A stretch of 64,000 bases of DNA. Source: Escherichia coli. GTDB lineage: Bacteria; Pseudomonadota; Gammaproteobacteria; Enterobacterales; Enterobacteriaceae. A model generated the notes under the pieces. That model worked only from the letters and a program-made list of their open reading frames with translations. It did no database searches and was not told the origin of the DNA. The stretch is from the NCBI RefSeq assembly GCF_041886205.1, contig NZ_CP169029.1; one strand, 5' to 3'. This document shows, one piece after another, positions 5,329-15,525 of this stretch. The translations under genes and the position numbers were made by a program. Each line of letters opens with the position of its first letter. The first letter of the stretch is position 1.

Positions 5329-5892
5329 TCAGTTGTGTCGTGGTCGGCCGCGGTTGCTTTTTTCGGGAAGCCTGCTACGGCCCAGAATAATACCGTGTTC
5401 TTTCTGATCCTGTTTAGCCAGATAGCTAAGGGCGTAACGTAAGTTGTCTACCGCGGACTTATCACTATAGTGCATCACGTGATCGATACGCACCGGGTAT
5501 TTGTCTTTAGCCCGGCAAAGGTGAAAGTAACCCTCCCCTTCCGTGATCTGCCTCCAGATATCTCCCAGTTGCCTGGATATCTGATAAGAGTTCTTGTGAC
5601 GTTGCCCATCCAGGTAGCCGACAAAATGAATATGAAGCCCTTTGTTTTGTGTATATTCCATTACCCAGTAATATCCCGCCAACATCGATTGGGTTTCGCT
5701 AAGTAAGCGGTATATTTCCATACACATACTGTGCTTACAGCCATGACCAAAACTGGGCGTGTCTTTCCTGTAGGCAAAATCAATTCTGAAAGGTAACAGT
5801 TTAGAAAAACGTTGAAACAGACCTTCCATGTGTTCATTCACGTCTTTCAGAATCATGAAGTCCATTTCGTAATTGGGATTAGCATTATACAT
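5329..5892 (-). CDS. YagK/YfjJ-family (inovirus Gp2-like) cryptic-prophage protein
   Basis: 187-aa ORF in same orientation as alpA and the split gene, matching CP4-57-type gene order (alpA - yfjI-like - yfjJ-like); family assignment from recalled sequence similarity only. Confidence 0.4.
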   Translation of the reverse strand: MYNANPNYEMDFMILKDVNEHMEGLFQRFSKLLPFRIDFAYRKDTPSFGHGCKHSMCMEIYRLLSETQSMLAGYYWVMEYTQNKGLHIHFVGYLDGQRHKNSYQISRQLGDIWRQITEGEGYFHLCRAKDKYPVRIDHVMHYSDKSAVDNLRYALSYLAKQDQKEHGIILGRSRLPEKSNRGRPRHN

Positions 5893-7202: not shown

Positions 7203-8541
7203 CATAAGCGCTAACTTAAGGGTTGTGGTATTACGCCTGATATGATTTAACGTGCCGATGAATTACTCTCACGATAACTGGTCAGCAATTCTGGCCCATA
7301 TTGGTAAGCCCGAAGAACTGGATACTTCGGCACGTAATGCCGGGGCTCTAACCCGCCGCCGCGAAATTCGTGATGCTGCAACTCTGCTACGTCTGGGGCT
7401 GGCTTACGGCCCCGGGGGGATGTCATTACGTGAAGTCACTGCATGGGCTCAGCTCCATGACGTTGCAACATTATCTGACGTGGCTCTCCTGAAGCGGCTG
7501 CGGAATGCCGCCGACTGGTTTGGCATACTTGCCGCACAAACACTTGCTGTACGCGCCGCAGTTACGGGTTGTACAAGCGGAAAGAGATTGCGTCTTGTCG
7601 ATGGAACAGCAATCAGTGCGCCCGGGGGCGGCAGCGCTGAATGGCGACTACATATGGGATATGATCCTCATACCTGTCAGTTCACTGATTTTGAGCTAAC
7701 CGACAGCAGAGACGCTGAACGGCTGGACCGATTTGCGCAAACGGCAGACGAGATACGCATTGCTGACCGGGGATTCGGTTCGCGTCCCGAATGTATCCGC
7801 TCACTTGCTTTTGGAGAAGCTGATTATATCGTCCGGGTTCACTGGCGAGGATTGCGCTGGTTAACTGCAGAAGGAATGCGCTTTGACATGATGGGTTTTC
7901 TGCGCGGGCTGGATTGCGGTAAGAACGGTGAAACCACTGTAATGATAGGCAATTCAGGTAATAAAAAAGCCGGAGCTCCCTTTCCGGCACGTCTCATTGC
8001 CGTATCACTTCCTCCCGAAAAAGCATTAATCAGTAAAACCCGACTGCTCAGCGAGAATCGTCGAAAAGGACGAGTAGTTCAGGCGGAAACGCTGGAAGCA
8101 GCGGGCCATGTGCTATTGCTAACATCATTACCGGAAGATGAATATTCAGCAGAGCAAGTGGCTGATTGTTACCGTCTGCGATGGCAAATTGAACTGGCTT
8201 TTAAGCGGCTCAAAAGTTTGCTGCACCTGGATGCTTTGCGTGCAAAGGAACCTGAACTCGCGAAAGCGTGGATATTTGCTAATCTACTCGCCGCATTTTT
8301 AATTGACGACATAATCCAGCCATCGCTGGATTTCCCCCCCAGAAGTGCCGGATCCGAAAAGAAGAACTAACTCGTTGTGGAGAATAACAAAAATGGTCAT
8401 CTGGAGCTTACAGGTGGCCATTCGTGGGACAGTATCCCTGACAGCCTACAAAACGCAATTGAAGAACGCGAGGCATCGTCTTAACGAGGCACCGAGGCGT
8501 CGCATTCTTCAGATGGTTCAACCCTTAAGTTAGCGCTTATG
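7203..8541 (+). mobile_element. IS186 (IS4 family), complete 1339-bp copy
   Basis: 23-bp terminal inverted repeats CATAAGCGCTAACTTAAGGGTTG at 7203-7225 and 8519-8541 (rc); flanked by 11-bp direct duplication GGAAATATCCC at 7192-7202 and 8542-8552 in a GGGG-N6-CCCC target. Confidence 0.85.
7252..8370 (+). CDS. insL: IS186 transposase (DDE, IS4 family)
   Basis: 372-aa ORF with C-terminal YRLRWQIELAFKRLK motif typical of IS4-family transposases; lies between the IS186 inverted repeats. Confidence 0.85.
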   Translation: MPMNYSHDNWSAILAHIGKPEELDTSARNAGALTRRREIRDAATLLRLGLAYGPGGMSLREVTAWAQLHDVATLSDVALLKRLRNAADWFGILAAQTLAVRAAVTGCTSGKRLRLVDGTAISAPGGGSAEWRLHMGYDPHTCQFTDFELTDSRDAERLDRFAQTADEIRIADRGFGSRPECIRSLAFGEADYIVRVHWRGLRWLTAEGMRFDMMGFLRGLDCGKNGETTVMIGNSGNKKAGAPFPARLIAVSLPPEKALISKTRLLSENRRKGRVVQAETLEAAGHVLLLTSLPEDEYSAEQVADCYRLRWQIELAFKRLKSLLHLDALRAKEPELAKAWIFANLLAAFLIDDIIQPSLDFPPRSAGSEKKN

Positions 8542-9660
8542 GGAAATATCCCCCTCTTCACCGCTCGAATGGTAAATAAGTCCTGCCAGTCTTGCCATAT
8601 ACTCTGCATTTTTAGCAGCATATTCCCGGCAATGTCTTAAAGGCCCCAATCCCCCCAGCTTCGATTCCACATCATTGTAATAATCCGTCCAGATTCTGGC
8701 AGCCTGAGGAGAAAAGTGAAGGCAACGTCGTTCACCACTCATCGCCAGACTTTCATCAATAAGCTCATTGATCCTCTCTTCAAACAAATCCTGATACTGT
8801 GATGAATAATTATCTCCGGTTATTATCCTTGTCCCCTGCGTTGATGTTGGTTGACACATCAAAAACCTTGCATGATGTCCTGACGTTTTCACAATTTCTT
8901 TTTTTCGCGTACAAAAACCTTTGTGGTAAACATCAGGCTGAATCATCACCGATATCGTCAGTCTTGGCTCCTTCAAATTAATTCCGGGAGATGATTTCCT
9001 GTCGATGAAAAGAGAACCTCCATCCCACAAAGTGTTAATAATTCCCAGTTTACTCATGGCCCGGCTGTCAAAAATTACCCCCCCTTCACTGGATACAAGA
9101 GCAAAAGAGCGATTGCTGTCGGAATAATATTTTAACATTCCCTCTATCGTTGTCTCATTAAAAATTGTTCGACGTATCTGCGGCGGAACAGGAGGTTTAT
9201 TCAGATGCGTTTCAAGCTCTGATTCTGTTGCCTTGTAATCTTTACCGGCACGAATCTCTTTATGAAATTTTGATTCCAGCGCTTTTTGTTTTTGCTCCCA
9301 TATTTCCTTTTCTGTACTGTAATTCTCAACCAGTTTCGCGTATTCTTCCGCCAGGGCTTCATCCCTGAGATAAAATGCTTTCATAAACACTTTATCCACG
9401 GTCGTTTTCCTTTCACCGGAATCAGCCAGAATCAGAGAGTAAAGATTAACAGGCCCATGTAAATTTCCAGGTCTGCACACGTCAATCTGATTCTGACAGG
9501 CAATTGAGATCGCTGTTAATGCGGATGTTGCCACCATAGCCAAAGGTGCCTGTGTATTTTTTTGAGTTTCAATTATTGCATTTCTCACCAGCGGTGGTAG
9601 TGCATATATCGGATAAGGATTTTCTGGTGCAAGTAAGCACATAAAAGCCTCTCTTTTCAT
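8542..9660 (-). pseudogene. N-terminal part of island gene split by IS186 (YfjI/DUF3987-like); as-is ORF reads into the IS to a stop at 8530
   Basis: 376-aa ORF 8530..9660; last codons (EEGDISHKR) are encoded by TSD and IS186 IR; reconstructed uninterrupted gene would be 483 aa. Confidence 0.6.
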
Positions 9661-9674
9661 TAATGGGTTAGTAA

Positions 9675-9717
9675 AATAGCAGCAAATCCCGCTACAATAG
9701 CGAAAATAGCTGCTATT
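9675..9717 (-). promoter_or_regulatory. Nested palindrome (AATAGCAGC-N24-GCTGCTATT with inner CGCTA-CAA-TAGCG) in leader of the split gene; candidate operator
   Basis: Seen directly, 15-57 nt upstream of start codon at 9660; repeated in the duplicated copy at 10141-10180. Confidence 0.4.
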
Positions 9718-9860
9718 CAGACCTGATGCTCTGAGAAATACAGAGCATTTGTAGATCTGATGTTTAATAAACCGATAAGGTTAATTCAGTGAAGACTGTA
9801 TTATTCACCACGAAATATCATTCATATTTCTCATTCTTAATACCTCCAGAAATTATTTCA

Positions 9861-10190
9861 CTAATACCTTTCCCCCGGTCTTTTCCCTTTCTCCAGAACC
9901 ATAGTGTAAATATTAACGGCCCCACGTAAATTTCCGGGACTGCATACGTCAACCTGATTCTGACAGGCAATTGACATCGCTGTTAATACTGACATTGCAA
10001 CCAGAGTCAGAGGTACTTGTTTATTGTATTGAGCTTTAATTATTGCCTTCCCTATCATTGATGGTCATGCATATACTGAATACGGCATATCCGGTTTGAT
10101 GTAAGACATAAATGCTTCCTTTTTCGTAATACGTTTCGGTTATAGCAGCAATTACCGCTACAATAGCGACAATAGCTGCTCTTTCAACAA
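9861..10190 (-). repeat. Partial tandem duplication of the 5' end and leader of the split island gene (truncated paralogous ORF 9861..10058)
   Basis: 9861-10190 aligns to 9380-9730 at roughly 85% identity by eye; ORF 9861..10058 (MIGKAIIKAQYNKQVPLTLVAMSVLTAMSIACQNQVDVCSPGNL...) parallels the N-terminus of ORF 8530..9660. Confidence 0.6.
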
Positions 10191-10284
10191 TGAATGCTGG
10201 AAATTCTGTTTATCAATTAAACTTCTGGATAAATTGTTCTTATGCTTCTTTTTCCTCCTGAGGTGATCACGTGATGACAAAAAC

Positions 10285-10593
10285 TTATCTGCTCATGGTC
10301 ATATCTGAAGAAAGCGTATGTCGCACTTCGTCATTAACACCTTTGACTGCTGATCTGGCAGGTACAGTATGTAAAGTAAGCCATTCGTCAATAGCTGATG
10401 AACGCCAGCCCACAGAACCACTACCAAGACGTACCGGCCTGGGGAAGGTTGCATCGTAGTATTTCGATAACGGATTCATTTTTTCGTAAATTGTCGAACG
10501 AGATATACCTAACAATTGGCTCAGTTCAGGCATCCGTAAGATGCGTGAAGGAGTCCAGCAGTATCCGGATTGATCTGGCATTTTATCCCCCAT
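10285..10593 (-). CDS. alpA: AlpA-family phage/island HTH regulator (start codon uncertain; alternatives at 10581 or 10665)
   Basis: Contains ILRMPELSQLLGISRSTIYEKMNP...YDATFPRPVRLGSGSVGWRSSAIDEWL, matching the AlpA signature (YDATFP...SVGW...EIDEWL). Confidence 0.6.
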   Translation of the reverse strand: MGDKMPDQSGYCWTPSRILRMPELSQLLGISRSTIYEKMNPLSKYYDATFPRPVRLGSGSVGWRSSAIDEWLTLHTVPARSAVKGVNDEVRHTLSSDMTMSR

Positions 10594-10789
10594 AGTGTGG
10601 TGAACTGTCGTTACAGTTTGTATTCCCCGGGTAAATTTGTCTGCGTAAAAAAATGGGCTGAGCAAAAAGACAATAAATAATTAAAAATCAATACGATAGA
10701 AAACAACAGCATTATTGTTATTTTACTTTCACCTTATCGCTGTCGATTCTCATTATCATTCATTGGTAAAAAACAGCAAAAGAGGCCCT

Positions 10790-11553
10790 GGTAATGACTC
10801 CAGTCAGTAGTACAGTGTTTTCGACAAATGAACCAATGGCTTTTCGTGAATTTCCAGGGAGCGTGAAAAGCAAATCGTTTTCCGGGCTGGTCGTTTGATG
10901 TGAGTACGAAGTGTCAGATTGTTGCACTCAATGCGCCGGGTAAATATCTTGCCGACAAGATGCTTATCCTGTGGCATTTCTCTGGTATAACTGCTCCGGT
11001 TGTCTCTGGTTATCATGCCTGTGGAGAATGGCTTCAGGAGTTCCGGCAACTCACGACATGTTTCATCAGTGCGAGGACCAAAAGTGTAAGCCAGCACACC
11101 TCCAGATTTGGTGTTATACGCATACCAGTGCCACTGCTGACGAGCTTTGTTTTCGACAAAACTCCATTGTTCATCAAGTTCGCAGATAAGCGTCACATCG
11201 GCACTGGCGACTGGAGATGTGGTTACTTTGCGTGGTGAGCGTTTTATAAAGTGAGAATGACGGTGTTGATATCCACCTTCAGCGTTCTGGAACTATCGCG
11301 AACCCCGACTCCGTTATGAACCATTTCAACAATTTGCTCTTTAATGCCTGGTTTTCGGGTTTCGTAGATGTAATTCAGTTGAAATACACACGTTTGCAGG
11401 ATTAGCACTGGAAACGCTCATGATCTGAGGTGCTGTGATCATAATGGTACACTTTATAGGAATTACAGCTGGGAGAATGTACTGTAACTGTTGCCATATG
11501 GTCTCCAGATACCAATAGAATACCACATTAATCTATCGTCAGAAGGCATCACC
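10790..11553 (-). mobile_element. Degenerate IS1-family element (764 bp; insA frameshifted, insB N-terminal region degenerate)
   Basis: Terminus GGTAATGACTCC at 10790; ORF 10804..11196 matches IS1 InsB C-terminal half (QWHWYAYNTKSGGVLAYTFGPRTDETCREL...KTICFSRSLEIHEK); manual translation upstream gives InsA-like MATVTVHSPSCNSYKVY... then, after a frameshift, LNYIYETRKPGIKEQIVEMVHNGVGVRDSSRTLKVDINTVILTL; other terminus ...GCATCACC at 11546-11553. Confidence 0.65.
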
Positions 11554-11693
11554 GGGGCCTTCTGACATAATCTGTTAATACGTGTACTATTACCCTGTTC
11601 AGAAAATATTGATTCAAAAATGAAAACCAGTTAACAGAAAAGCAAAATGATATAATGTTAAAATTTTATATAGTGCAATAAAAGGAGAATGTT

Positions 11694-13511
11694 ATGTATA
11701 ATTTTATCACTATAATGTATGATGTCTTTTCATGTTTTGGTGTTCTGGCTAAAAACCAGAATACCCGTGACATCCGAAATATTAAAAATTTTTCCTCACA
11801 TCAATATTCACTGGGCGACATGTTTGATGAATTAATAAACATTATTGATAAAGAACAAGTATTGAGTACAGAACAACGAAAAGTTATATTTAGGAGATAT
11901 GAAGATCTCTATGTTAAGCTAATGCACTATTCTGTTTTTACAGACCAAACACATCAAATAATAAAACAAAAATATTTTAATGACATTGTACCAATGATTC
12001 TCGCACTCGACATCAGGAACACATATCGCCCGGATAATGAGATGGCATTTTACTATCATATTCATTCTTTTCTCACTCAGATACCGGATAATGAGGATGA
12101 TATATATCATGCTGCAAGGACATATCTGCGAAATTACGTTAAGTTATGTTTATCCGGATACACACCAGCGAATGCGCATTTCAAAGATATCTTTGATGGC
12201 GTATATGAATTCATTCGTAATATTCGCAAAAACAGTACACCAGGAAAAACAAAACTTATCGCAACTATCAACACATGCAAAGAAACCTGTAAACATCTGC
12301 TTTATTTAAGTAATGAAGACAAGGAAAAAATAATTTCTGACTTAGATAAAGTTCAGGTTGCATGTTATTATCTCACTATATTACTGGCTTTCGAAAGACG
12401 AACTTCATTAACAAGCACCCTGGCAACTTTATATAAAATGCTGATAAGCGAAAGAGAAGTTTCAGAATATGAATGCCAGTTATTATATTTAACCAACCCA
12501 ATAGATGTAATGAATATACTGAACAAATACATATATTACTTTCCTAATGAAAACTCACCATTTTATACACTGAAAATTGACAGTGCATTATCGTGGGATG
12601 CCATTGACGCAATACGAGACTATAGTATTTCTGATATTTATCTTTATCCTGAACAAAAAACAATAAATTGTGTCGTTGAGATTGAAAACATTGTCTTTGG
12701 CGGTTACATTTATACATTGAACAACGGCGTCACATTACAAAACATAGAAAACACTTTAAAAGATTCTTCATGCCATTATGTCTTAAATGGCTATACAGAA
12801 TTTGTTAACTGTTTGATACAACTTACTTCAGGAAAGACTGAAAGTGTTCATCGCACCATCAATAAACTGAACTATGAGAAATTACCTTTTGGATTTATCA
12901 TTGCCGCGTTTGCTATACTAAAGATAGCATTTAAAATAAAATTCAGTAAAAATCATGTAAATATCCGAGCATTATTAAATGACATCAATTATTTTATGAC
13001 TTATCAGGGCGAGTCCATTAACCTTATTTCACTGGATCACGAATACCCAGAGTCCTGTCTTCAAAATGACACAAACACATATTTATTAGGAAGAGTAATA
13101 TTTCTGTATAACTCAATGATTTATAAGTTCATAAACTGTCAGGAACATGAAACCAATAACATTCACTCAGCTATGATAAATAACCTATTACAGGAAGTTG
13201 ATATAGCCCTTGGTAAAATAAATAACATTATAGACAGCAGAAACATATCAGCCCCCCATGAACTGGCAAATATTCTTACCCGCGAAAAAATACTTACAAC
13301 ACGGGAAAAAAAAGGAAACCTGATAAGCCTGTTTGATGGATTCACTTTATTCCATTGTGTTGGAATGATAACCTTTCTTATCCATTATCTCAGAACACCT
13401 GAAGAAAAAGTTGAAAATATATTTATGTTATATGGTGCAGATAAAAACAATAAACTACGCAGAAGACTGATTTATGACGCACTAGGAATAATTCAGTCTC
13501 AGCAGGAGTGA
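11694..13511 (+). CDS. Hypothetical 605-aa protein, AT-rich cargo gene in the int-alpA hotspot; no recognisable catalytic motif
   Basis: Long uninterrupted ORF in very AT-rich DNA; SD aaaggaga 5 nt upstream of ATG; TATAAT at 11651-11656; convergent with integrase. Confidence 0.7.
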   Translation: MYNFITIMYDVFSCFGVLAKNQNTRDIRNIKNFSSHQYSLGDMFDELINIIDKEQVLSTEQRKVIFRRYEDLYVKLMHYSVFTDQTHQIIKQKYFNDIVPMILALDIRNTYRPDNEMAFYYHIHSFLTQIPDNEDDIYHAARTYLRNYVKLCLSGYTPANAHFKDIFDGVYEFIRNIRKNSTPGKTKLIATINTCKETCKHLLYLSNEDKEKIISDLDKVQVACYYLTILLAFERRTSLTSTLATLYKMLISEREVSEYECQLLYLTNPIDVMNILNKYIYYFPNENSPFYTLKIDSALSWDAIDAIRDYSISDIYLYPEQKTINCVVEIENIVFGGYIYTLNNGVTLQNIENTLKDSSCHYVLNGYTEFVNCLIQLTSGKTESVHRTINKLNYEKLPFGFIIAAFAILKIAFKIKFSKNHVNIRALLNDINYFMTYQGESINLISLDHEYPESCLQNDTNTYLLGRVIFLYNSMIYKFINCQEHETNNIHSAMINNLLQEVDIALGKINNIIDSRNISAPHELANILTREKILTTREKKGNLISLFDGFTLFHCVGMITFLIHYLRTPEEKVENIFMLYGADKNNKLRRRLIYDALGIIQSQQE

Positions 13512-13698
13512 AACGTTAAAACAGGCAAATTGTTTTTTATAAATAGGAGATTGTTGAGTAATCCCCTGTTTATAAAAATACGCTTTCCTGACGATCTGAT
13601 AATTATCAGCTCAATACATTTGACATAAAAGCGGTTCCTTAATTACTACTGCCACGATCACATATCAAATCATGATCGTACAATATACATTTTCACTA

Positions 13699-14901
13699 TT
13701 ATTTATTCACAATTTGAGACATCACATAATCCGCCCATGCCTGCATCATCGGTACACGCTGCTCCAGTAGATCAGTACGATGATATGCCGCCTCAACCTT
13801 ATTTTTCAGCGTATGAGCGAGCGCCCTTTCCGCCAGATCCCGCGAATACCCCTGTTCACTACACCAGTCCCTGAATGTTGAGCGAAAACCATGTGCCGTG
13901 GCAACTCGCCCCGGAATGTCACTGACGGCTTTCTTTTTACGCAGAAAACTTGTCAACACCATATCGGAAAGGATCTGCTGCTTTCTGGGTGAAGGGAACA
14001 CCAGTTCATCATGCAGGCCACGTATATTTTCCAGAATGTAAATAGCCTGCCGGGATAAAGGAACACGATGCTGTAGCCTGGCTTTCATTCTTTCTGCAGG
14101 TATAGTCCATACCCGCTTATGAAAATCAATTTCAGCCCAGCGCATTCCCCTGGCTTCGCCCGAGCGAGTTGCTGTAAGTATCACCATTAATAACAGTGCG
14201 CGGGTAACATTATAAGGTTCATCACTATACACACTGGTCGCCACAAAAAGCGGTAACTGCCTCCAGGGCATTGCTGGTTGGTGTTCATCACGTCCTCTTG
14301 TCTGCTGAGGAAGCAAATGGTCAACCACATCAACAGGATTTGCCACACAAAAACCGTGCGCCCATCCCCACTGCATAACAACATGAATGCGCTGTTTAAC
14401 CCGGCTTGCCGTTTCTGACAAGGTTAACCAGACTGGACGCAGTGTTTCTGCCACGTCCGCAGCCGTAATCGAATCCAGCGTTTTTGCTCCCAGTTGAGGA
14501 AACGCGTAATTCTCAAGCGTCGATAACCACTGCCTTACATGCTTTGGATTTTCCCATCCTGGAGACAATTCTGCATGTACACGCCTGGCTGCATCGGCAA
14601 ATGTTGGGATAACGACTTTCTCAGATTCAGCCTTTTTAATCTCCAGAGGATCATCACCTGCAGCAAGTTGCTCTCGCATTATCCGGGCAGTACGTGCAGC
14701 TTCAGCAATACTGACCTCTGGGTAAGTTCCCAATCCAGCATTACGTCTTTTTTGTGTCACCGGACTTACATAACGAAAAACCCATTTCCCCCGCCCCTTT
14801 ACTGAAGAAGGATGAAGGGTCAGTCCGGTAATTCCCCCATGGGGCAATGGTTTGTCATCAGGTTTGATATGTCTTGCTTTCGTATCCGTCAATACTGCCA
14901 T
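13699..14901 (-). CDS. int: Tyrosine site-specific integrase, P4/CP4-57 IntA-like
   Basis: 400-aa ORF; N-terminal LTDTKARHIKP...FRYVSP arm-binding-type region and C-terminal catalytic motifs (HGFRSTFRDW, LAH, Y in EAAYHR). Confidence 0.9.
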   Translation of the reverse strand: MAVLTDTKARHIKPDDKPLPHGGITGLTLHPSSVKGRGKWVFRYVSPVTQKRRNAGLGTYPEVSIAEAARTARIMREQLAAGDDPLEIKKAESEKVVIPTFADAARRVHAELSPGWENPKHVRQWLSTLENYAFPQLGAKTLDSITAADVAETLRPVWLTLSETASRVKQRIHVVMQWGWAHGFCVANPVDVVDHLLPQQTRGRDEHQPAMPWRQLPLFVATSVYSDEPYNVTRALLLMVILTATRSGEARGMRWAEIDFHKRVWTIPAERMKARLQHRVPLSRQAIYILENIRGLHDELVFPSPRKQQILSDMVLTSFLRKKKAVSDIPGRVATAHGFRSTFRDWCSEQGYSRDLAERALAHTLKNKVEAAYHRTDLLEQRVPMMQAWADYVMSQIVNK

Positions 14902-15044: not shown

Positions 15045-15525
15045 GATTTATTTCAGGCGGTCCCCCTCACCGCCATATTTAAAGAAGAGCTCGTACGAAA
15101 GTACGGGCTTTTTTTTCGTATATTGCACACACCGGGGGGATGAGAATCCCCGACCGGGGGTCGACAACTGGCGGCAGCCAGTTGGACAGACCGTGAACGC
15201 AGTGAGCGGGCTGCCCGCAGGGCGAGCGAAGCGAGTCAATCCCCCCCTCACCGCCATATTTAAAGAAGAGCTCGTACGAAAGTACGGGCTTTTTTTTTCG
15301 TATATTGCACACACCGGGGGGATGAGAATCCCCGACCGGGGGTCGACAACTGGCGACAGCCAGTTGGACAGACCGTGAACGCAGTGAGCGGGCTGCCCGC
15401 AGGGCGAGCGAAGCGAGTCAATCCCCCCCTCACCGCCATATTTAAAGAAGAGCTCGTACGAAAGTACGGGCTTTTTTTCGTGTATTGCACACACCGGGGG
15501 GATGAGAATCCCCGACCGGGATACT
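15045..15525. repeat. Tandem direct repeat array, unit about 181 bp, about 2.7 copies
   Basis: Units begin near 15061, 15241 and 15421 with near-identical sequence; each has a terminator-like hairpin plus T-run (gagctcgtacgaaagtacgggcttttttt) and hairpins GGGGAT-GAGA-ATCCCC and CAACTGGC-N4-GCCAGTTG (loop differs between copies, stem conserved). Confidence 0.9.

Follow-up and report, generated by a model that had tools for sequence, protein, structure and literature searches.

ORF605, an intact 605-codon open reading frame in the 64,000-nt Escherichia coli stretch analysed here (the window), is co-inherited with a divergently oriented alpA gene and the DUF3987 gene beyond it, and very probably belongs to the backbone of its integrative island rather than to the variable cargo. 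The initial annotation had placed ORF605 in a variable cargo slot between an integrase and alpA, as a solitary candidate defence gene of a P4/CP4-57-type island. The island type, a kind that carries defence cargo, was confirmed, while the remaining parts of that description were not supported. We found no study of the gene in the literature. The features of the window that bear on it, by position and strand, are:

5329-5892, minus: YagK/YfjJ ('inovirus-type Gp2') gene, the third alpA-operon gene in relatives
7252-8370, plus: IS4-family (IS421-like) transposase, interrupting the YfjI gene in the window
8530-9660, minus: N-terminal part of a DUF3987/YfjI gene (P-loop helicase-like), cut short by the IS element at 7252-8370
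9861-10058, minus: second, short fragment of the DUF3987 N-terminus, located between alpA and yfjI
10285-10581, minus: alpA-type gene for an HTH protein (relatives belong to PF05930; position taken over from strain C10's PGAP annotation)
10804-11497, minus: degenerate remnant of an IS1 transposase, an insertion separating alpA from ORF605
11648-11656, plus: extended -10-like element TGATATAAT upstream of ORF605, a perfect TGnTATAAT (consensus match only)
11683-11687, plus: Shine-Dalgarno sequence AGGAG, 6 nt 5' of the ORF605 ATG
11694-13511, plus: ORF605, intact, ATG start, 605 aa, annotated 'hypothetical protein' (WP_000271854.1 / WP_047659600.1 types)
13254-13260, plus: C7 homopolymer within ORF605, the site of a frameshift in some E. 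coli variants, which end at 541-546 aa
13306-13313, plus: A8 homopolymer within ORF605, a second frameshift/truncation site in variants
13699-14901, minus: P4-type tyrosine integrase, convergent with ORF605
15062-15520, plus: 182-bp RtT-like unit, its 3' end tRNA-like, repeated 2.5 times in tandem where the island meets the chromosome

The RtT-like tandem units at the junction are a possible attachment site. Several local properties attributed to ORF605 at the outset were confirmed. Its GC content is 32.3% (GC3 29.5%), where the integrase has 48.7% and the window overall 50.1%; a strong Shine-Dalgarno sequence precedes the start codon; and the gene is convergent with the integrase, with a 187-bp gap between them. 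A perfect extended -10 is present, but a two-hexamer promoter scan of the AT-rich ORF605 stretch found 20 promoters, compared to 14.8 +/- 4.1 in shuffles. Since this is no enrichment, the ORF605 promoter, predicted from the consensus, is only plausible. No terminator-like site was found 3' of ORF605 on the plus strand, and the sole such site found lies on the minus strand within the gene.

Word-indexed protein searches, using either the single ORF605 protein or a 21-sequence profile, returned only relatives of at least 91% identity, and the profile added nothing. An exhaustive representative search exposed the wider family, with full-length homologues at 19-35% identity in Enterobacterales, Aeromonas, and Shewanella. 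Full length was kept down to 19% identity, and the C-terminus is conserved. An AlphaFold2 model of ORF605 built from 19 sequences was all-helical, with a pLDDT of 83.9 and a pTM of 0.84. Because the homologues align end to end and the model is confident, ORF605 is a genuine gene and not a chance open reading frame.

No relationship of the ORF605 family to any known family or fold could be detected. Pfam and PDB sequences, queried with single sequences and with profiles, gave no significant match, and the one NCBIfam match was at noise level (E 0.15; 12 bits, where the cut-off is 259). No PADLOC-DB v2 family (5027 models) matched ORF605 at E<=1, and none matched any of 10 distant members at E<=0.1. 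PHROGs gave 0 matches for ORF605 and noise-level matches only for its relatives (E 0.007 or weaker), and tblastn against 50,697 phage genomes detected no homologue. The structural model had no real fold match in the PDB or among viral structures, including no BFVD match at E<=0.001; its fold is shared by A0A3L0W2L1, an E. coli protein of 930 aa annotated as 'HTH domain-containing' (TM 0.64). Across 21 family members, Pfam and NCBIfam searches detected no HTH beyond one noise-level HTH_73 match (E 0.085), and no enzymatic, NTPase, or nuclease motif was found in the family. The library searches thus agree with the earlier view of an uncharacterised protein lacking a recognisable catalytic motif. 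Homology to a characterised phage-structural or housekeeping protein, named in the initial annotation as grounds for rejecting the defence proposal, was absent in PHROGs, phage tblastn, and BFVD searches. Comparison with TPR-type RRNPP regulators (AimR, NprR) gave generic-helical-bundle scores, no HTH, and no sequence signal.

Two hydrophobic stretches had been taken as a hint of membrane association. Both stretches exist, with Kyte-Doolittle 19-residue means of 2.04 (residues 397-415) and 1.61 (residues 545-563), but their hydrophobicity is not conserved. At these segments homologues score 0.5-1.8 and contain up to 5 charged residues, with ORF605 the family extreme. In the globular bundle of the model, the first segment falls in a helix with pLDDT >90 and the second extends over blocks of pLDDT 84-90, and the helices are well packed. 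Hydropathy across homologues, together with the model, gave no conserved transmembrane helices in the family, and ORF605 is unlikely, on both grounds, to be a membrane protein. We consider it highly improbable that its product is a membrane-associated abortive-infection toxin, even though the two segments exceed a simple hydropathy threshold and automatic naming has labelled some UniProt fragments 'Membrane protein'.

The genomic context of the family is uniform. In 11 of 11 contexts anchored on distant homologues, the ORF605-family gene is accompanied by a divergent alpA (PF05930) and then DUF3987 (PF13148). These contexts comprise two E. coli lineages, Providencia, Y. ruckeri, Edwardsiella, three further lineages, a Shewanella/Aeromonas-type member (19% identity), and two Aeromonas subfamilies. 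YagK_YfjJ_C directly follows DUF3987 in 9 of the 11, lying elsewhere in L006 and beyond the contig end in L087. A scan anchored on AlpA, which used one genome per species and counted loci with AlpA at >=59% identity and enough upstream DNA, gave the same picture: all 11 Enterobacterales loci carry an ORF605-family gene, or frameshifted fragments of one, divergently upstream, in a survey that is biased by its AlpA alignment to the AlpA clade accompanying the family. Outside Enterobacterales, the family was found in none of ~49 AlpA-anchored loci. Among 5426 complete E. coli genomes, ORF605 occurs at 1091 places in 1036 genomes (19%), and the alpA type of its islands at 1081 places in 1028 genomes. 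The backbone of P4-type integrase, AlpA, and DUF3987 helicase is present twice per genome in O157:H7.

The partners also diverge together. Pairwise identities within the ORF605 family track those of DUF3987 (Spearman 0.77) and AlpA (0.73). Identities range from 24 to 42% in the ORF605 family and from 42 to 82% in AlpA, with the ORF605 family and DUF3987 diverging to a similar degree (24-51%). None of 22 contexts examined had a family member outside the alpA pairing. The earlier statement that ORF605 is solitary, with no partner gene, is therefore wrong, because alpA-DUF3987 constantly adjoins it divergently and the three genes form a conserved unit. In relatives, the alpA-to-ORF605 intergenic DNA spans ~60-250 bp and is conserved (TTGCCACA..ATCTGAGATACTGTCCCCGTAAAAAACGGAAACCAACCGGAGG), though the proteins are only ~30% identical. 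The IS1 remnant interrupts this control region in the window. In 9 of 9 modules measured, the ORF605-family gene has the lowest GC content of its module (29.5-39% compared to 36-51%), and Aeromonas-type modules have their own H-NS genes. In the related CP4So island, excision is controlled by H-NS binding at the alpA promoter (PMC5148205).

The position of ORF605 relative to the integrase varies. It lies between int and alpA in the window and in O157/C10-type islands; in most relatives, DUF3987/YfjJ or cargo occupies that interval and the ORF605 homologue is found on the opposite side. In sister E. coli islands with ~94-95% identical integrases, the ORF605-alpA-DUF3987 block is inverted so that the integrase abuts DUF3987, and one such island occupies the same phoH/DUF2726 site with its ORF605 homologue still beside alpA. 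Because the unit inverts as a block relative to the integrase, ORF605 follows alpA and not the integrase. No turnover of slot content was seen among closely related islands, as the 11 Enterobacterales loci all keep the family; replacement appears only at greater distance, with yfjH in CP4-57, where AlpA is 41-54% identical. Within its AlpA clade, then, ORF605 is not swapped as cargo. The neighbourhood survey of homologues proposed in the initial annotation thus returned a fixed alpA pairing rather than exchangeable hotspot cargo, and the variable-slot description finds no support in either the homologue-anchored or the AlpA-anchored set. Matches in a plasmid collection were confined to E. coli records of 0.2-4.8 Mb with near-identical (87-99%) copies. 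Recognisable defence cargo is located elsewhere in these islands and includes Gabija-like OLD-TOPRIM with UvrD, type I RM, and GTPase/SLATT genes. Adjoining an integrase is insufficient to label a gene 'hotspot cargo', and such labels call for caution.

We propose that the ORF605 product is a soluble, all-alpha-helical cytoplasmic protein and very probably a fixed component of CP4-57-like ('satellite-like') integrative islands in Enterobacterales and Aeromonadaceae/Shewanella. Its gene forms a unit with two divergent genes, alpA (for an excisionase/activator) and DUF3987/YfjI (for a P-loop replication helicase), from which ~100 bp of conserved intergenic DNA separates it. As a regulator or adaptor acting with AlpA and/or the helicase, it could set the on-state of the excision-replication operon, in a position that would be analogous to that of Stl or cI opposite their lytic operons. 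Tentatively, we infer that ORF605 serves the island life cycle, in control or in replication, with AlpA and the helicase. A more specific proposal, which we regard as rather unlikely, is that it is an orphan-fold gatekeeper that, on sensing a stress or helper-phage signal, releases the AlpA-DUF3987 programme or blocks the phage.

Alternatively, ORF605 could be a backbone-encoded anti-phage or helper-interference protein, similar to PICI/P4 interference genes or single-gene defence systems, and kept beside alpA as standard satellite equipment instead of exchangeable cargo. We consider this possible but somewhat unlikely. Its host elements are defence-carrying, satellite-like islands of the kind described in a preprint (PMC12458937); the related slot of Vibrio PICMI satellites holds many unrelated genes of unassigned function, and one PICMI accessory gene is a new defence gene (PMC10803314). 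A different gene, yfjH, occupies this position in CP4-57, the orphan fold is compatible with such a function, and the divergence of ORF605 (24-42%), fast compared to AlpA (42-82%), is what an arms race predicts. The proposal of a defence function nevertheless gained no positive support: there was no match among the 5027 PADLOC models for any of 11 members and no homologue in the 50,697 phage genomes, and the known defence genes of these islands lie elsewhere. The family also lacks an enzymatic, NTPase, nuclease, or conserved membrane motif and never leaves alpA in the 22 contexts. Its long co-divergence with replication genes is atypical of defence genes, and the gene is often frameshifted.

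That co-divergence could instead reflect a role as an island replication accessory, such as a helical loader or an origin-recognition or specificity partner of DUF3987 and/or the Gp2-like (YagK/YfjJ) initiator. ORF605 divergence tracks that of DUF3987 best, and both diverge much faster than AlpA, a pattern reminiscent of lineage-specific initiator/origin pairs. A Walker-A-like SG..K motif is invariant in DUF3987, and satellite replication requires the PICMI homologue of this protein (PMC10803314). We nonetheless judge this role improbable: ORF605 is divergent from the replication operon and not within it, the searches revealed no resemblance to known loaders or initiators, and CP4-57 has a related YfjI without a member of the ORF605 family. 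It is very unlikely that ORF605 is a decaying remnant without present function in E. coli. Homopolymer-linked frameshift variants do occur, the gene is broken in 5 of 11 species representatives, and in the window an IS element cuts the neighbouring YfjI gene and an IS1 remnant separates ORF605 from alpA. However, the dominant cluster is the 605-aa form, with 8897 member sequences compared to truncated forms that are singletons, and both the conservation of full length and C-terminus to 19% identity and the confident AlphaFold model argue against decay.

Much of the cargo for defence, virulence, and metabolism in enterobacteria is borne by islands with a P4-type integrase, AlpA, and a DUF3987 helicase, and we know of no Stl-like repressor identified for such islands in Gram-negative hosts. 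ORF605 is a candidate for a control role because it represents an orphan family, faces alpA in all lineages studied, and occurs in 19% of complete E. coli genomes. It is thus an obvious, cheap candidate for the control of island silencing or induction, or for helper-phage interference. If the gatekeeper proposal were true, ORF605 would represent a new sensor class in about one-fifth of E. coli genomes, including the O157:H7 islands, and, if it acts by releasing the AlpA-DUF3987 programme, a non-HTH functional analogue of Stl for Gram-negative AlpA-type satellite-like islands.

Among known systems, the Stl master repressors of SaPIs/PICIs have an N-terminal HTH and are co-oriented with int. Like ORF605, they diverge fast, are specific to their island, and are transcribed away from the excision/replication operon, with a short control region in between. 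ORF605, in contrast, runs convergently to int, is roughly double the length of Stl, and lacks a detectable HTH. The uncharacterised YfjH (b2623) of the K-12 cryptic prophage CP4-57 resembles ORF605 in position and orientation, and the CP4-57 order intA(+), yfjH(-), alpA(+), yfjI(+), yfjJ(+) mirrors the int/ORF605/alpA/yfjI/gp2-like order of the window. The yfjH gene is also AT-rich (36.8% GC), although YfjH has 318 aa compared to ~600 aa in the ORF605 family. As a distant homologue YfjH was rejected (hhalign probability 0.06%, E 0.73), and it was absent among the 50 Foldseek AFDB matches listed for ORF605.

The Vibrio PICMI elements provide a parallel, in that their iolg/icg genes, like ORF605, are genes of unassigned function beside int and alpA in AlpA-DUF3987 elements (PMC10803314). 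Those between int and alpA group into 13 families unrelated to one another, and excision depends on iolg (PMC10803314). By its published description, iolg is small, overlaps int, and is co-directional with it (PMC10803314), whereas ORF605 is convergent with int, encodes ~600 aa, and stays with alpA on inversion. The satellite-like defence-island elements described in a preprint (PMC12458937) combine a P4-type integrase, an AlpA-like excisionase, and an HUH/Rep-like initiator. They are of the same class as the islands studied here: both have an integrase and AlpA, a Gp2/Rep-like gene, extensive variable cargo, and, at the far end, RadC/CbeA 'moron' modules. The passages of the preprint consulted make no mention of the ORF605 family, which here is a constant feature of one AlpA clade of such elements.

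The initial annotation had marked an AT-rich gene convergent with an integrase. The coordinates given for this gene proved exact. The setting is E. coli chromosomal, with the DUF2726 gene, phoH and efeUOB on the right and island DNA on the left, and the surrounding features are as follows.

7252-8370: IS4-family (IS421-like) element, truncating the DUF3987/YfjI gene
8530-9660: truncated DUF3987/YfjI gene
9861-10058: second short DUF3987 fragment, adjoining alpA
10804-11497: frameshifted IS1 remnant between alpA and ORF605
11648-11656, + strand: perfect extended -10, TGATATAAT (consensus match)
6 nt 5' of the ORF605 ATG, + strand: Shine-Dalgarno AGGAG
11694-13511, + strand: ORF605, ATG start, 605 codons
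13699-14901, - strand: P4-type tyrosine integrase, convergent with ORF605 across a 187-bp gap
15062-15520, + strand: tandem repeat of a 182-bp unit, 2.5 copies with 98% matches, lying between integrase and DUF2726 gene

The reported AT-richness was also confirmed, with a GC content of 32.3% for ORF605 (29.5% at third positions) versus 48.7% for the adjoining integrase and 50.1% for the whole window. The predicted Shine-Dalgarno and sigma70-like -10 elements are both present, but a two-hexamer promoter scan of this AT-rich DNA returned 20 sites versus 14.8 +/- 4.1 in shuffles, which is no enrichment, and the promoter is a plausible candidate. No terminator-like site was found on the + strand 3' of ORF605.

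ORF605 had been considered a solitary gene in a variable cargo slot, but its family is neither solitary nor variable cargo: it is fixed opposite alpA in a class of mobile islands. In all 11 contexts of distant homologues, the family gene is directly divergent from alpA (PF05930), mostly ~100 bp away, with DUF3987/YfjI (PF13148) after alpA. YagK/YfjJ (PF11726) comes next after DUF3987 in nine of these, lies elsewhere in L006 and falls beyond the contig end in L087. The alpA-DUF3987 pairing holds for a member with 19% identity and for two Aeromonas subfamilies, and the integrase is on the opposite side of the module in most loci. An independent AlpA-anchored scan that took a single genome from each species yielded 61 loci. 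The family gene, whole or as frameshifted pieces, lay divergently upstream in 11/11 Enterobacterales loci with AlpA of at least 59% identity and enough upstream DNA, and was missing from ~49 loci of Acinetobacter, Halomonas, Neisseria and other genera, in a scan biased to the AlpA clade accompanying the family, with search patterns derived from those AlpAs.

The real variable cargo consists of genes between the integrase and the module, or past the ORF. It includes a Gabija-like OLD-TOPRIM and UvrD pair, a type I RM system and an SMC-like ATPase in a Y. ruckeri island, GTPase/SLATT conflict systems and a trypsin-AAA protein at other homologue loci, and H-NS genes and RadC/CbeA modules in Aeromonas. 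Distal cargo in the first 5000 nt of the window is metabolic (iolD, methylmalonate-semialdehyde dehydrogenase and a MurR/RpiR regulator, from the annotation of near-identical bovine strains); in O157:H7 islands sharing this backbone, the cargo is instead an AEP primase-helicase, labelled a 'TOTE conflict system' protein, plus IS elements.

Sister E. coli islands (L084 5009-10194 and L085 4995-10194), with integrases ~94-95% identical to that of the window, encode a 607-611-aa family member, and one of them occupies the identical phoH/DUF2726 site. Compared to window positions 8530-14901, their ORF-alpA-DUF3987 block, a different family allele (~33% identical), is inverted relative to the integrase and the Gp2-like gene, such that the integrase abuts DUF3987 and the family ORF is on the far side. 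Since the ORF remains beside alpA despite the inversion, the family gene follows alpA rather than the integrase. Counts in E. coli are nearly equal for ORF605 (1091 places) and its alpA type (1081), while the integrase is commoner (1365) because the ~94-95%-identity variant belongs to the sister islands. Across nine modules, pairwise identity within the ORF family (24-42%) tracks the DUF3987 values (Spearman 0.77) and the AlpA values (0.73), uncorrected for shared ancestry. In each family lineage measured, the family gene exceeds all others of its module in AT content, and low GC is therefore a family trait rather than a sign of separate recent acquisition.

The pairing has limits. The K-12 cryptic prophage CP4-57 has matching architecture (intA, reversed yfjH, alpA, yfjI, yfjJ), and the window-type YfjI has its closest relative there (43%). 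YfjH was nevertheless rejected as a family member, being unrelated to the ORF605 family, and the alpA-facing gene has therefore been replaced at larger evolutionary distances. In the window, the backbone around ORF605 is degraded by two IS insertions or remnants, and the IS1 remnant is common to the window, O157:H7 and strain C10 copies.

Each 182-bp copy beside the integrase resembles RtT RNA (Rfam RF00391; 38 bits, short of the 45-bit gathering threshold; E ~1e-4) and has a tRNA-like 3' end (AATCCCCCCCTCACCGCCA), with a hairpin and T-run behind it. ARAGORN detected no true tRNA in the window or seven related loci. As the sister integrase of strain SF10 has an 'RtT sRNA' next to it in the PGAP annotation, these tRNA-like ends suggest that the repeat may serve as the island attachment site.

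An alignment of alpA-ORF intergenic regions (L003 7898-8000, L013 7880-8000 and 11 other loci) revealed a ~100-bp segment kept across genera (TTGCCACA..ATCTGAGATACTGTCCCCGTAAAAAACGGAAACCAACCGGAGG) and better conserved than the proteins, the flanking ORF products being ~30% identical. Divergent promoters that overlap, operators or a leader probably lie within it. Only its distal part can be recognised in the window (~11600-11640), with a new AT-rich promoter-like segment downstream. Islands of the Aeromonas/Shewanella type encode one or two H-NS-like genes of their own after the alpA-DUF3987-YfjJ operon, which would fit xenogeneic-silencing control of AT-rich modules.

L021, 4399-4800: H-NS-like gene
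L086, 3322-3729: H-NS-like gene
L088, 2907-3311 and 3657-4004: H-NS-like genes

Of 5426 complete E. coli genomes, 1036 have the ORF605 stretch, many O157:H7 genomes in two copies, and it is annotated 'hypothetical protein' every time. Word-indexed protein searches recovered only relatives of at least 91% identity, while HMMER, run exhaustively over 1.8 billion representatives, gave 31 hits, ~15 of them full-length (570-690 aa, 19-35% identity). Hosts were E. coli, Citrobacter, Klebsiella, Yersinia, Hafnia, Dickeya, Kluyvera, Edwardsiella, Providencia, Proteus, Aeromonas and Shewanella, and all homologues are 'hypothetical'. Consistent with the description of ORF605 as uncharacterised, no significant match was found in Pfam, PADLOC, PHROGs or PDB sequences for it or up to 20 relatives, and NCBIfam, searched with ORF605 only, gave a noise-level match. 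No phage or housekeeping homology emerged from PHROGs, from 50,697 phage genomes or from a Foldseek search of viral structures. AlphaFold2 produced a confident model, helical throughout (19-sequence alignment, pLDDT 83.9, pTM 0.84), and the AFDB50 matches listed were limited to uncharacterised members of the family, remote proteins from Aeromonas and Burkholderia, and a single E. coli protein of 930 aa. The latter, A0A3L0W2L1, which carries the label 'helix-turn-helix domain-containing', has the ORF605 fold over ~650 columns (TM 0.64, 16% identity) and may be a fusion tying this fold to DNA binding.

We tentatively favour a function in controlling or replicating the island itself, in which ORF605 would be a regulator or adaptor that cooperates with AlpA and/or the DUF3987 helicase. 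This role is favoured because the divergent alpA pairing is fixed across a conserved control region, the family co-diverges with the helicase and is absent from phages and other contexts examined, and ORF605, as initially annotated, has no enzymatic motif. The conserved AT-richness also favours it, since in this island class H-NS regulates excision by binding the alpA promoter (CP4So; PMC5148205). Its main weakness is that no DNA-binding domain was detectable in ORF605. Less likely, in our estimate, is a backbone-encoded helper-interference or defence protein, for which the fast evolution of ORF605 speaks, as do the host elements, which are satellite-like defence carriers (PMC12458937), and the Vibrio PICMI satellites, where accessory genes of unknown function turned out to be either required for excision (iolg) or involved in defence (up2) (PMC10803314). 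That ORF605 is a replication accessory seems improbable.

A membrane Abi toxin is very improbable. Two stretches had hinted at membrane association and pass a simple hydropathy threshold (2.04 and 1.61), but only in the window protein; the same columns in 20 homologues average 0.5-1.8 with up to five charged residues. In the model, the first segment is a helix (pLDDT above 90) inside a globular bundle and the second falls in pLDDT 84-90 blocks, making a membrane role unlikely. With alpA-DUF3987 partners, unconserved hydrophobicity and no PADLOC match, the proposed solitary, membrane-linked hotspot defence cargo is largely unsupported. We give equally little credence to a functionless remnant. 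The 605-aa form is the intact one, because homologues align end to end with it and are best conserved in the C-terminal half (LPxGYLxxAFxxIxLALKIKL, DANNxTIMRxIxxYNxMI, KILTxxExxxNLI and TLYNC...YLxxPGE). The family gene is broken in 5/11 loci of the species survey, three of which also have a broken DUF3987. In E. coli variants of 541-546 aa, frameshifts fall precisely on homopolymer tracts (C7, 13254-13260; A8, 13306-13313) and remove the conserved C-terminal 60 residues, which may reflect real slippage, decay or sequencing error.

Together, these findings define a widespread orphan-fold family that is fixed facing alpA in an important mobile-island class, and a well-defined, inexpensive experimental target. 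Literature searches found no paper on the family and no Pfam, NCBIfam or PHROG entry matches it; the protein family is undescribed, and an island backbone gene facing alpA is an already known kind. The host element belongs to the recently described integrase-AlpA-Rep-like satellite-like island class. The closest known counterparts of ORF605 are positional analogues rather than homologues, among them YfjH of CP4-57. Stl of SaPIs is likewise positionally analogous, being divergent from the excision/replication operon, but Stl is an HTH protein and its gene has the same orientation as int. The iolg/icg genes of PICMIs occupy an analogous position and are also co-oriented with int, whereas ORF605 is convergent with it.
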